Shown: positions 13,908 through 62,144 of the stretch, piece after piece
How the letters are laid out: every line of letters starts with the position of its first letter
How positions within the stretch are numbered: the stretch's first letter is position 1
DNA from: an uncultured Alphaproteobacteria bacterium
Lineage (GTDB): Bacteria; Pseudomonadota; Alphaproteobacteria; Rhizobiales; Beijerinckiaceae
Direction of reading: 5' to 3'
NCBI GenBank assembly: GCA_963806935.1
Contig: CAWEAT010000011.1
Location: forward strand, 140,347 to 204,346
Length of the DNA stretch: 64,000 bases
Notes under the pieces: model-generated
What the model was told of the DNA's origin: nothing
The model's database searches: none
The model's input: only the letters and a program-made list of their open reading frames with translations
Made by a program: the position numbers and the translations under genes

Positions 13908-14663
13908 ATGGCCTATGAGCTCTTTTATTGGCCCAGTATCCAGGGCCGAGGCGAGTTCGTACGCCTCGCGCTGGAGGCGGCCGGCGCGCCTTACGTCGAT
14001 GTCGCCCGCGAGCGCGGGACCGGCCGCGGAGTCAAGGCGCTGATGGCGATCCTCGAAGGAAAGGCGGCGCCGTTCACGCCGTTTGCGCCGCCGATCCTGC
14101 GCGACGGCGAGATCGTCGTCTCGCATGTCGCCAACATCCTCTTCTACCTCGGGCCGAAACTCGGGCTCGCACCGGCCGGCGAGGCAGCGCGCCTGTTCGC
14201 CCACGGGCTCGAGCTCACCATTACCGATTTCGTCGCCGAGATTCACGACACGCATCATCCGATCTCGACCGAGCTCTACTACGAGGACCAGAAGAAGGAG
14301 GCCAAGGCCCGCACGGGCGCCTTCCTCGCCCATCGCGCGCCGAAATATCTCGGCTATTTCGAGCAGGTGCTGAACGACAATCCAGCGGGAAAGGCGCACG
14401 CGGTGGGGGACAAACTGACCACCGAGGATCTCTCGCTGTTCCAGGTCTGGGCCGGCCTGTCTTATGCCTTCCCCCGCGCCTTCGCCGAGGCGGGCAGGCA
14501 TTACCCGGCACTGGCCGCGCTGGTCGCCGAGGTCGCCGCCCATCCGAAGGTCGCCGCCTATCTCGCCTCGGAGCGCCGGATTCCCTTCAATGAATCCGGC
14601 GTGTTCCGCTGCTATCCGGCGCTCGATGAACGGCCGCCGAAGGCGGGGCGGCGCAAGCAGTAA
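13908..14663 (+). CDS. Glutathione S-transferase family protein
   Basis: YELFYWPSIQGRGEFVRLALE, PFAPP, DLSLFQV, RIPFNESGVFRCYP. Confidence 0.85.
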   Translation: MAYELFYWPSIQGRGEFVRLALEAAGAPYVDVARERGTGRGVKALMAILEGKAAPFTPFAPPILRDGEIVVSHVANILFYLGPKLGLAPAGEAARLFAHGLELTITDFVAEIHDTHHPISTELYYEDQKKEAKARTGAFLAHRAPKYLGYFEQVLNDNPAGKAHAVGDKLTTEDLSLFQVWAGLSYAFPRAFAEAGRHYPALAALVAEVAAHPKVAAYLASERRIPFNESGVFRCYPALDERPPKAGRRKQ

Positions 14664-14751
14664 CCGGCTGATTGGCTTTCGTCAGGTTACAATCCCCGCT
14701 TCGCTCGTTAGCTCAACTGTCCGAGCTCGGATGGCGCCCCAGCCTCGAGAC

Positions 14752-14784
14752 TTGACGGGAACATAAAAAGAACATATAGTGAAC
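14752..14784 (+). promoter_or_regulatory. Sigma70-type promoter overlapped by tandem alphaproteobacterial LexA boxes
   Basis: TTGACG-17nt-TATAGT; GAAC-N7-GAAC-N7-GAAC at 14759, 14770, 14781. Confidence 0.8.
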
Positions 14785-14801
14785 TAGGCAAGATCGAGGA
14801 G

Positions 14802-14909
14802 ATGAAAATGCACATCGCTGTCCAAGCCATTCGCGACACGGCCGAACTCGCCTCGCTTGGCGCGTTTCTGATCATGATCGCGCTCGCCGCCCGCGCGCTC
14901 GGCGCGTGA
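14802..14909 (+). CDS. 35-aa single-TM protein, SidA-like SOS division inhibitor candidate (absent from ORF track)
   Basis: RBS GAGGAG; MKMHIAVQAIRDTAELASLGAFLIMIALAARALGA; directly behind the LexA-boxed promoter and upstream of dnaE. Confidence 0.6.
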   Translation: MKMHIAVQAIRDTAELASLGAFLIMIALAARALGA

Positions 14910-15200
14910 CCCGCGAGGATCGTCGGGCGCCGCGCGTCGAGTTTCGCTTACGAGCGGCGCGGCGACGCCGCGGCGGCGAGGAGCCGACGTTGAGTGCGAG
15001 CGAAATTGACCCAAAAGAGACCTTTAACCCACTGAAATCATTGCCGCGCGACCAACAAATCTGCACAAGCCCGAATCGCCGCGGGCGGCCCTCAATCTGC
15101 GCAGTGAGGGCGGCCTTTGCGCAAGACCATCCGCCCGCCGTCCCCATCATCCACAGGGCTAGGCCCTCGACCCATTCCCGCGCGCTTGCGACAATGATCC

Positions 15201-18200
15201 ATGGACCCCGCGATTCTCAAGGCCGTCGGCTTCGTGCATCTGCATGTGCACAGCGCATATTCGCTCCGCGAGGGAGCGCTTACGATCGAGACGCTCGCCA
15301 AGCTCGCCGCCGCCGACGCCATGCCGGCGCTGGCAATCGCCGACACTAATAACCTGTTCGGCGCCCTCGAGTTTTCGGAGAAGCTTGCCAAGGCGGGGGT
15401 CCAACCGATCATCGGCGCCCAAACGACGCTCGATTTCGCTGACGCCGCCCCCGCCTTGCTGCGCGCCGTCGAACGGGACGACGCGCGAGCTCCGATCGTA
15501 CTGCTGGCGCAGAACGAAGCCGGCTACCGCAATCTAATGCGCCTCGTCTCGGGCTTATGGCTCGATCCGACCGACGGCGACGAGCCGCATATCGAGTTCG
15601 CCGCCTTGCGCGACACCGAGGGCCTCATTGCGCTCACCGGAGGGCCTGCCGGACCGATCGACCGGGCGCTGAGACGCGGGCTTGGCGACGTCGCCGAAAC
15701 CCGGCTCAAGCGCCTCGTCGAGACGTTCGGCTCGCGCCTCTATGTCGAGATTTCAGCGTCACGGCCTCGACGGCGAGCGAGTGGTCGAGCCTGCGCTCAT
15801 TGGACTCGCCGACCGCTTGGGGGTTCCCCTCGTCGCGACCAACGAGCCCTATTTCGCCTATGCCTCCGACTACGACGCCCATGACGCTCTGCTATGCGTC
15901 GCCGAAGGGGCGCTGGTCTCGGCGTTGGAACGGCGGCGCCTCTCGCCGGAGCATCGGTTCAAGACCCGCGCCGAGATGATCGAGCTTTTCGCCGACCTTC
16001 CCGAGGCGGTGGAAGCCAGCGTCGAGATTGCGGTGCGCTGCGCTTATCGGCCGCTGACGCGAAAGCCGATCCTGCCTCGCTTTTCAGTGGCCGGAGGCGC
16101 TGCTGTCGACGAGGAACAGGAGCTCAGGCGCCAGGCGCGTGAGGGCTTGCGCGCGCGTCTCGGCGCCCATGGCCTCGCGCCCGAACGCACGGCGGAGGAC
16201 TACGAGAAGCGCCTCGCCTTCGAGCTCGACGTCATCGTCAACATGACCTTCGCCGGCTATTTCCTCATCGTCGCTGATTTCATCCAATGGGCGAAGGCGC
16301 AAGGGATTCCGGTGGGGCCAGGCCGCGGTTCGGGCGCGGGCTCACTGGTCGCCTGGGCGCTCACGATCACCGACCTCGATCCGTTGCGCTTCGGCCTCCT
16401 GTTCGAGCGGTTCCTCAATCCTGAGCGGGTGTCGATGCCGGATTTCGACATCGATTTCTGCCAGGAGCGCCGCGACGAAGTGATCGCCTATGTGCGCGAC
16501 CGCTACGGCGCTGATCGAGTGGCGCAGATCATCACCTTTGGCTCGTTTCTGGCCCGGGGCGTAGTCCGCAACGTCGGCCGGGTGCTCGAAATGCCGCTCG
16601 GCCAGGTCGACAAGCTCGCCAAGCTCGTGCCGCAGAACCCCGCCCATCCAGTGACGCTGAAGCAGGCGGTGGCCGACGAGCCACGGCTCCAGGAGGCGGC
16701 GAAAGCCGACGAGAAAGTCGCCCGGATGCTGGCGATCGCCGAGCGGCTCGAGGGCCTCTATTCCAACGCCTCAACCCATGCAGCCGGCGTCGTGATCGGC
16801 GACCGGCCGCTGATCGAGCTCGCGCCGCTCTACCGCGATTCAAAGTCGGCGATGCCGGCGACGCAATTCAACATGAAATGGGTCGAACCGGCGGGGCTGG
16901 TGAAGTTCGACTTCCTCGGTCTGAAGACGCTGACCGTCCTCAAGCGGGCGGTCGATCTGCTGGCGCGGCGCGGCATCGCGGTCGACCTCGGCAAGATCCC
17001 GCTCGACGACGCGAAGACCTATCAGATGCTGGGCCGTGGCGAGGTGGTCGGCGTGTTCCAGGTGGAAAGCGGGGGCATGCGGAAGGCGCTGGTGGAGATG
17101 CGCGCTGACCGGTTCGAGGACCTGATCGCGCTGGTCGCGCTCTACCGCCCGGGGCCGATGGCCAACATTCCCGTGTACTGCGCTCGCAAGCTCGGCCGGG
17201 AAAAGGTCGAATACGACCATCCGCTCCTGGAGCCGATCCTCATGGACACCTTCGGCGTCATTACCTATCAGGAGCAGGTGCAACAGATCGCAAAGGATCT
17301 CGCTGGCTATTCACTGGCGCAGGCCGACATCCTGCGCCGCGCGATGGGCAAGAAGATCAAAAAGGAGATGGACGCGCAGCGCGAGCGTTTCGTAACGGGA
17401 GCGGTCGATCGCGGCATCGATAAAATAACCGCCGACGCTATTTTCGACGCCTGCGCCAAATTCGCGGAATACGGCTTCAACAAGTCGCATTCAGCGCCTT
17501 ACGCTTTCATCACCTACCAGACCGCGTGGTTCAAAGCCAACCATCCGGCTGAATTCCTCGCCGCCTCGATGACTCTGGACAAGTCGAACACCGACAAGCT
17601 CGCCGAGTTCCGCGCCGAGGCGCTGCGCCTCGGGATCAAGGTCGACGCCCCGTCGGTCAATGATTCGCTGGTCGATTTCGACGTGCGGGCGACCAACGGC
17701 GGGGGGCCGACGATCCATTACGCCCTGAGCGCGATCAAGGGTGTCGGCGAAGCCCAGGCTGACGCGCTGGTGTTGGCGCGTGGAAAGCGCGCGTTCGCTT
17801 CGCTCCGCGAGATGGCGGCGCGGCTCGATCCCCGCGCTGTCAACAAGAAGGCGCTTGAGAGCCTAGCCGCCGCCGGGGCGTTCGACTGCTTGGAGGGAGA
17901 CCGCGCGAGCGCGTTTGCGGCGATCGAACCGATGCTGGCGATCGCCAGCCGCGGGGCTACAGAGAAGGCGGCGGGCCAGAACGCGCTCTTCGGCGAGACC
18001 GAGACCGAGCCTTTGGGGGCGCGTGCTGCGCCATGGCCGGATTCGGAGCGGCTCAGGCGCGAGTTCGATGCCGTCGGCTTTTTCCTCTCGGGCCATCCGC
18101 TCGAGGTTTATAAATCGGCTCTCAAGCGGCTCAGGGCCACGCGCTGGGCCGATTTCGCCCGCTCGGTGCGTGCCGGCGCCTCGACCGCGAGGCTTGGCGC

Positions 18201-18660
18201 GACTGTCCTCGACCGCTACGAGCGGCGCGCGCGCAGCGGCGGCAAGATCGGCGTCGTGCAGCTGTCCGATCCGTCAGGCCGCTATGAGGCGATCCTGTTC
18301 CAGGAGGGGCTGAGCCAGTTCCGCGATCTTCTGGAGAAGGGCGCGGACGTGCTGGTGACGCTCCAGGCGGCGGTCGAGGGCGAGGACGTGCGGGCGCGGA
18401 TCGTTAACGTCGAGCGGCTGACCGACGCCGCCGCCAAGGTGCAAAAGGGCCTCAGAGTGTTCGTTCGCGACGAGACCCCGCTCAATTCGATCGAGCGGCG
18501 CTTAAGCGCGCGCGGCGACGGCGAGGTATCGCTCGTGGTCATCCTCGGCCCACAGGACGGCGAGGTTGAAATCCGTCTGCCCGGCCGCTACGCGGTCAGC
18601 GCCGCAGTCGCCGGCGCGCTCAAAGCGGCGCCCGGCGTGGTCGCGGTGGAGCAGGTCTGA
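15201..18660 (+). CDS. dnaE: DNA polymerase III alpha subunit; one frameshift near 15752
   Basis: PHP motif FVHLHVHSAYSL, GPGRGSGAGS, MPDFDIDF, KFDFLGLKTL, GFNKSH, OB fold; GAGATTTCAG has one T too many for EIQRH. Confidence 0.95.
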
Positions 18661-62100: not shown

Positions 62101-62132
62101 GAACATATAGAGAACATTACTGCTCTTGTCAA
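62101..62132 (-). promoter_or_regulatory. Leftward sigma70-type promoter overlapped by a LexA box
   Basis: Minus strand TTGACA-17nt-TATATG; GAAC-ATATAGA-GAAC at 62101-62115. Confidence 0.6.
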
Positions 62133-62144
62133 GGGAAAAGTCCC

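Follow-up and report, generated by a model that had tools for sequence, protein, structure and literature searches.

A conserved micro-gene under a predicted LexA operator upstream of dnaE in the Roseiarcus group, a probable diverged counterpart of Caulobacter sidA

Does the very small reading frame that lies beneath a cluster of LexA half-sites upstream of dnaE in an uncultured alphaproteobacterium encode an SOS-controlled brake on cell division? To our knowledge, SidA is the textbook case of an SOS division inhibitor from outside the gamma-proteobacteria and has been studied only in Caulobacter, where it is reported as a 29-aa SOS-induced inner-membrane division inhibitor acting on FtsW (PMC4211646). 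The 64,000-nt stretch analysed here, termed the window, was described in a first-pass annotation as encoding, next to dnaE, a small SidA-like membrane peptide under SOS control, and this description holds as far as the sequence goes, being consistent with the selection on the peptide, the type of operator, the synteny and a profile link to SidA. The explanation that we consider probable, although far from certain, is that the locus constitutes the Roseiarcus version of sidA, in which a strong sigma-70-type promoter under a LexA operator would drive the production of a 33-residue inner-membrane peptide causing a SidA-like delay of division. The features of the small gene and its control region are as follows.

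14752..14757, plus strand: -35 hexamer TTGACG (promoter scan, 17-nt spacer; orthologous loci keep TTGAC immediately 5' of the LexA box)
14759..14784, plus strand: LexA operator GAAC-N7-GAAC-N7-GAAC, two overlapping alphaproteobacterial boxes (motif scan and conservation)
14775..14780, plus strand: -10 hexamer TATAGT, within the second LexA box (promoter scan; an ATA..TG-type -10 is kept in orthologues)
14796..14801, plus strand: Shine-Dalgarno sequence GAGGAG, 6 nt 5' of the ATG at 14808 (read from the sequence; a GGAGG-type site stands at equal spacing in nearly all orthologues)
14808..14909, plus strand: small gene of 33 codons and a stop, MHIAVQAIRDTAELASLGAFLIMIALAARALGA (conservation, codon statistics, hydropathy, profile match and a 33-aa gene call)

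The open reading frame at 14802-14909 translates to 35 residues (MKMHIAVQAIRDTAELASLGAFLIMIALAARALGA), which was the length first assigned to the peptide. The Shine-Dalgarno sequence directly abuts the first ATG (14802) and is suitably spaced from the second, while all of the approximately 70 orthologues begin at the equivalent ATG, nine to ten codons before an invariant Asp and behind a GGAGG-type site; the existing gene call at this position (P0024) also represents the 33-aa form. The true start is thus almost certainly the second ATG, giving a product of 33 aa, and the ATG at 14802 is probably unused, so that the reading frame originally proposed stands but its length does not. Its description as unannotated was likewise only partly true of the family, since the orthologue of Roseiarcus fermentans has been deposited as the hypothetical protein DFR50_1325.

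A six-frame search recovered the micro-peptide, devoid of internal stops, in 22 of the 25 genomes of the genus, and a pattern scan of public species-representative genomes yielded 76 loci labelled as Roseiarcus, Hyphomicrobiales, Beijerinckiaceae and Methylovirgula MAGs, which disposes of the concern that the frame might not be conserved and identifies the source of the window as a soil Roseiarcus that has not been cultured. In the 24-codon core of 70 distinct sequences, the column entropy by codon position amounted to 0.62/0.31/1.15 and the Nei-Gojobori dN/dS to ~0.19; the micro-peptide is under purifying selection. Residues D10, E13, L17, A19, F20, M23 and A28 were invariant in the first alignment of 20 sequences. 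The peptide has one hydrophobic helix, L14-A28, with R9/D10/E13 before it and R29 after it, and its best 15-residue hydropathy is 2.45, against 2.19 for SidA. Membrane insertion is predicted from these properties, and the spanning of the bilayer is put forward only as a likelihood because the uncharged core comprises just 15 residues. The window peptide and seven class-level peptides matched nothing in Pfam or NCBIfam, and a homologue search gave 162 small proteins, of which the named hits were all termed hypothetical protein except for one evident mis-annotation, none of the 162 being named SidA. The micro-ORF is a real, conserved gene for a predicted membrane peptide.

The control region of this gene, which reads acTTGACGgGAACATAAAAAGAACATATAGTGAACtaggcaagatcGAGGAGATGAAAATGCAC... 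in the window, has the layout of a candidate SOS promoter, in which alphaproteobacterial LexA boxes (GAAC-N7-GAAC / GTTC-N7-GTTC) overlie the promoter. The near-consensus promoter first described, TTGACG-17-TATAGT, is indeed present at 14752-14780, where it agrees with the consensus at 10 of 12 positions, and the promoter scan of a 1.2-kb region revealed two such sites against 0.1 expected. The GAAC half-sites at 14759, 14770 and 14781 form the boxes 14759-14773 and 14770-14784 with the middle half-site common to both, exactly as had been claimed, and the operator spans the promoter spacer, the -10 hexamer and the expected transcription start, so that bound LexA would be expected to occlude the whole core promoter. 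The bare GAAC-N7-GAAC pattern is found four times in the window against 2.0 expected, a count of at least four being reached in 17 of 100 shuffles; since the pattern is this common by chance, the case is built on placement and conservation rather than on the number of motifs. A perfect LexA box occurs in 62 of the 69 orthologous loci, directly 3' of TTGAC and at a near-fixed distance from the ATG, its start lying at -49 in most loci (range -39 to -65). The third half-site in the arrangement of the window is present in 18 of the 69 loci, while four more bear an extra half-site over the -35 hexamer, and the third GAAC half-site is a lineage feature. LexA binding and damage induction at the small gene are predicted from this arrangement.

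The same class of operator was traced elsewhere in the genome (4.9 Mb, 65% G+C), which contains 145 GAAC-N7-GAAC sites, 23 of them with at least five A/T in the spacer; a binomial estimate puts the chance number of such AT-rich-spacer boxes at ~8. These boxes precede the divergent UvrA/SSB pair, RecA, a ParE-type topoisomerase subunit, a radical-SAM protein, RmuC and ComM/ChlI, the identities of which were confirmed by Pfam, and lexA of the same genome has GAACAAGCCGTGAAC upstream. For Caulobacter, the SOS box consensus is given as GTTC-N7-GTTC (PMC12700426). The set of box-carrying genes overlaps the Caulobacter regulon, as defined by experiment, in recA, uvrA, lexA, the radical-SAM gene ccna_01391 and chlI (ccna_00139). 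The operator at the small gene is consequently of the same type as those at recA, uvrA/ssb and lexA in this genome. No second copy of the micro-gene was found in the genome, and other AT-rich-spacer boxes, such as that at C5:74311, are not followed by any small hydrophobic ORF.

For comparison, the sidA locus of Caulobacter was recovered, SidA of Caulobacter crescentus/vibrioides being CCNA_02004 / CC1927 and represented by the NCBIfam equivalog model NF033228 (div_inhib_SidA). The first published sidA box was searched in 401 Caulobacterales genomes, and a Caulobacter relative was located with a CtrA sequence, which served for that purpose only. Genomes of the genus Caulobacter contain both published boxes, a GGAGG site, a 29-codon ORF and then dnaE ~40-50 nt further on; the boxes stand in tandem as GAACATCTTGTGAAC, GAACAAAAGAGGAAT and GAACAAAACAAGAAA. 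The recovered 29-aa peptide is SidA, because it scores 72.3 bits to NF033228 over its full length. In the published regulon, ccna_02004 (sidA) and ccna_02003 (dnaE) are neighbours that both belong to the Caulobacter SOS regulon, with GTTCACAAGATGTTC and TTTCTTGTTTTGTTC listed as the two sidA boxes, and 40 min of mitomycin C led to log2 fold changes of 3.42 for sidA and 1.18 for dnaE, the latter being 1.45 in a lexA sidA double mutant (PMC12700426). CC1926 corresponds to dnaE (PMC1839093). The sidA-dnaE synteny put forward in the first-pass annotation is thereby shown to be correct by both the published adjacency and the recovered loci.

In a second genus of the Caulobacter family (genomes of 2.4-3.7 Mb, 12 loci), the exact sidA box GAACATCTTGTGAAC was encountered as the recA operator, followed by a second box, GAACAAACC[A/G]TGCAC, which indicates that sister genera reuse the same 15-mer at different SOS genes.

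The two loci have much in common. Both encode a tiny single-helix peptide (29 aa in SidA and 33 aa in the window), place its promoter under several LexA boxes, and have the ORF, with a Shine-Dalgarno site in front, immediately before dnaE in the same orientation. They differ in that the LexA boxes of the window share a half-site whereas those of Caulobacter sidA stand side by side, and in that Caulobacter dnaE has a GGAGG site shortly after sidA, whereas dnaE of the window lies 291 nt downstream, lacks a Shine-Dalgarno site and is preceded by a promoter-like block of its own.

At the level of the peptides themselves, the relation is much less obvious. The window peptide and seven Roseiarcus-family variants gave no hit at E<=10 against NF033228 (cut-off 35 bits) with hmmscan, and a six-frame search with the same model through this genome and 24 relatives brought nothing over the cut-off and did not find the window ORF. 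A Roseiarcus HMM scored SidA at a weak 3.3 bits, reached by 121 of 3000 shuffles (p ~0.04); alignment of the two by hhalign was similarly weak (probability 10.8%, P 0.0028), and direct alignment of the window peptide with SidA displayed 6 identities in 24 positions. An intermediate profile was more informative, namely an HMM of 27 order-level peptides that leaves out Roseiarcus and Caulobacter and has members chosen partly for hydrophobicity. This profile scored the window peptide at 18.7 bits, which was reached by one of 3000 full shuffles and by none of 3000 segment-preserving shuffles, the latter keeping the polar head and the hydrophobic tail apart, and it scored SidA at 16.6 bits, reached by one of 3000 shuffles of either kind. 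Moreover, the profile alignment sets both peptides in a single register, in which R9-D10-L14-F20 of the window equals R6-E7-L11-F17 of SidA, and hhalign picks the same register; the residues that it brings together are R/K-D/E, Leu and Phe. Common descent of the window peptide and SidA is supported by these scores, helices of 30 residues being unable to give proof. As a probable diverged counterpart, the window gene extends a known system rather than founding a new one, and it is best regarded, on this profile evidence, as a diverged member of the SidA-type peptides.

A further stretch recurred as a weak match in the six-frame NF033228 search, IRIARKSLTLVSVGPV, and was rejected as a relative of SidA because it has no start codon, hydrophobic helix or LexA box. 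As (S)IRIARKSLTLVSVGPV(TT), the stretch is common to several families of the order (six loci, five genomes), where it adjoins a convergent gene; it matches the SidA model weakly by chance and may be a conserved RNA or DNA element.

The breadth of the arrangement was surveyed in DNA of up to 900 nt upstream of dnaE, taken from the genomes of the 100 best alphaproteobacterial matches to the window DnaE (about one per family) and from 64 order-level genomes (likewise about one per family). A region counted as positive when a GAAC-N7-GAAC box was succeeded by a Shine-Dalgarno site, with a hydrophobic ORF of 22-70 codons behind it. Such a module lies upstream of dnaE in 29 of the 64 order-level genomes (~45%) and in 13 of the 100 class-level genomes; reverse-complement and shuffled controls gave 0 detections, these controls covering 135 of the 164 regions (100 class-level and 35 order-level). 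The order-level micro-ORFs belong to the same module and family as the window peptide (the 18.7 bits given above), and their consensus is MRAFVKDAAALVALALFVATIAVWLDALAGLG. Annotated module peptides, such as DFR50_1325 and entries from Sneathiella and Parvibaculaceae, are all called hypothetical protein, and the literature searched gave no description of a wider SidA-like family. The combination of LexA box, micro-ORF and dnaE is widespread in Alphaproteobacteria, the sidA-dnaE pair of Caulobacter included.

Whether the SOS promoter also serves dnaE is a separate question, for which the following features are needed.

15083..15118, plus strand: GC-rich hairpin with the core GCCCTCA/TGAGGGC, followed by only TTT (read from the sequence; in the minimum-free-energy fold)
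15146..15154, plus strand: DnaA-box-like TCATCCACA upstream of dnaE (alignment of the 110 nt before dnaE, 32 loci)
15165..15195, plus strand: conserved promoter-like block CTCGAC-N-CTTGCGACAAT, with its end 5 nt short of the dnaE ATG (conserved columns of the 32-locus alignment)
15201..18660, plus strand: dnaE, DNA polymerase III alpha subunit (Pfam PHP, DNA_pol3_alpha, finger, HHH_6 and OB domains)

The stop of the micro-ORF at 14909 and the dnaE ATG at 15201 lie on the same strand, with a spacer of 291 nt, the fold of which is not unusual as a whole (z = 0.40). The hairpin may act as a weak terminator or as the RNA-end hairpin of a short transcript; it was not called by the terminator scan, which reported 0 sites in the region. 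The promoter-like block was not reported by the sigma-70 consensus scan. Its conservation before the ATG, together with the absence of a Shine-Dalgarno site, suggests that dnaE is probably transcribed from a promoter of its own into an mRNA that is leaderless or nearly so. In the orthologous loci, the spacer after the micro-gene varies from 76 to 742 nt with no conserved block before the dnaE promoter region, and dnaE is found within 3 kb downstream in 40 of the 69 loci and is absent there in 29. Where dnaE is unlinked, the micro-gene keeps its LexA promoter, and the next gene is an IS110-type transposase, an ispDF-like gene or a convergent pyrH-like gene (names from translations only). Retention of the micro-gene and its LexA promoter without dnaE downstream points to the peptide, not the control of dnaE, as the selected function. 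The suggestion that read-through could make dnaE damage-inducible is accordingly weaker here than in Caulobacter, and an SOS boost of dnaE by this route, although possible, is doubtful in this lineage because dnaE has its own conserved promoter-like block.

Several observations on this region may be recorded in their own right. The separation of the micro-gene from dnaE concerns ~40% of the Roseiarcus-group species (five loci may serve as examples). Nine loci with long spacers carry CCCTCTCCCC...GGGGAGAGGG-type palindromes resembling REP-like repeats, to which much of the spread in spacer length is due. At the DnaA-box-like site, ATCCACAG or GTCCACAG is present in 32 of 32 aligned Roseiarcus-group loci, the call on TCATCCACA resting on the known consensus, TTATNCACA; together with the CTCGAC...CTTGCGACAAT block, it suggests a DnaA-modulated, leaderless dnaE transcript. 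In addition, dnaE is split in the assembly into the frames 15201-15884 and 15682-18660. Comparison with an intact relative located the frame switch to one extra T (ATT>ATTT) at ~15752-15754 in GAGATTTCAGCG, where relatives read ...YVEIQRHG... in one frame, and the split is likely a homopolymer assembly error, given an essential gene in a MAG.

Taking the favoured SidA-like reading as a working model, LexA bound to the three GAAC half-sites would keep the promoter shut in undamaged cells, covering its spacer, -10 hexamer and transcription start, and RecA-stimulated cleavage of LexA upon DNA damage would free it. A short transcript with a leader of ~20 nt would then be made, and the peptide, once inserted into the membrane, would by analogy with SidA bind to the late divisome (FtsW/FtsI/FtsN) and delay constriction until repair is done. 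Inhibition of division and a divisome target are predicted for the window peptide by the same analogy, the function of SidA having been tested in Caulobacter only.

The peptide might nevertheless have taken up a different job. A SOS-induced, SidA-related membrane peptide with another partner or inverted topology, and with no FtsW-dependent block of division, is unlikely, though the charge reversal makes it the likeliest of the rival explanations. Relative to other order-level peptides, the Roseiarcus clade has Ala in place of the consensus Trp (W-x-D becoming A-A-R), a longer and more acidic N-part, and a gene that is often apart from dnaE. Position 29, directly after the helix, is Arg (or His/Lys) in the clade; the order consensus has Asp there, and SidA has Asn. 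Across 65 Roseiarcus-family members, the N-part bears a net charge of -1.0 and the C-tail one of +0.94 around the 15-residue uncharged core, whereas the head of SidA carries +1 and its tail no charge, and the window peptide further differs from SidA in three extra N-terminal residues and in having no match to NF033228. The positive-inside rule relates flanking charge to membrane orientation, and the reversed charges combined with the short core suggest that the topology or the partner may differ from those of SidA. These features are balanced by the locus, regulation and size, which are common with SidA, and by the N-terminal [R/K]-[D/E]-x2-A/x-L...F motif of the wider family; the gene neighbourhood suggests no alternative partner either, because the downstream genes vary. 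A broader proposal, for which we hold out a limited chance, is that the module is an old alphaproteobacterial SOS checkpoint of which SidA is one tip, and that the Roseiarcus peptide has been rewired, maybe by inverted insertion or towards a target other than FtsW; the lost Trp, the change from Asp to Arg just behind the helix, the inverted charge bias and the gene's frequent separation from dnaE would all be in keeping with it.

The remaining rivals fare worse. With its LexA control, ~30 residues and one hydrophobic helix of few charges, the peptide recalls TisB and DinQ of E. coli, and a SOS type I toxin, acting by membrane depolarisation and leading to dormancy or persistence after DNA damage, would look much the same. 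TisB resembles the window peptide in size, helix and LexA control, and DinQ is described as a LexA-controlled small hydrophobic peptide of E. coli (PMC3567139). TisB and DinQ, however, work by depolarising the membrane and are paired with antisense or sRNA regulators, and neither such an RNA nor any sequence similarity was found at the window: there is no Rfam match in 14500-15400, no conserved non-coding block except for the dnaE promoter region, and upstream a GST gene ends ~90 nt before the SOS promoter. Moreover, the peptide matches no Pfam or NCBIfam toxin family and fits the SidA-linked profile, which makes a toxin quite improbable. A functionless leader or upstream ORF that tunes SOS read-through into dnaE would account for the place of the gene just before dnaE, in the same orientation and without a canonical terminator separating the two, as well as for the mild SOS induction of Caulobacter dnaE behind sidA; it is very hard to reconcile with the strong amino-acid selection, with the 29 of 69 loci that keep the gene and its LexA promoter without dnaE within 3 kb, and with the promoter-like block and missing Shine-Dalgarno site of dnaE. 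That the frame arose by chance, the LexA boxes regulating something else or nothing, has a negligible probability. Spurious ORFs are common in GC-rich genomes (104 ORFs within 8 kb here) and the window shows no enrichment of the box motif taken alone, but the frame, start, Shine-Dalgarno site and stop are kept in ~70 distinct sequences with a coding pattern of substitution, and the box holds its near-fixed distance from the ATG.

The SidA-like reading would also place the peptide among other small damage-induced membrane proteins that act on the late divisome, namely DidA of Caulobacter and YneA/SosA of Firmicutes. These are longer than the window peptide (71 aa in DidA), have periplasmic or extracellular domains, are encoded at other loci and show no sequence relation to it; their regulation also differs, that of DidA being DriD-dependent and SOS-independent.

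To a specialist the gene itself would be unsurprising; what is useful is how widely the module occurs, the link to SidA given by the profile, and the variant seen in Roseiarcus. The curated SidA model recognises close relatives only, while a simple intermediate profile ties unnamed peptides to SidA and offers a way to annotate micro-genes that are often missed or labelled hypothetical. The survey suggests that a damage checkpoint aimed at FtsW may be a general trait of Alphaproteobacteria, residues that may matter for function are marked by the conserved R/K-D/E...L...F motif, and the charge-reversed Roseiarcus variant amounts to a natural experiment on what such a peptide needs to work.

One more LexA-type box, GAACATATAGAGAAC, was observed in the window at 62101-62135, where it lies on the minus strand inside TTGACA-17-TATATG. 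The DNA downstream on the minus strand is AT-rich with no obvious ORF, and a plus-strand ORF starts ~25 nt after the box.
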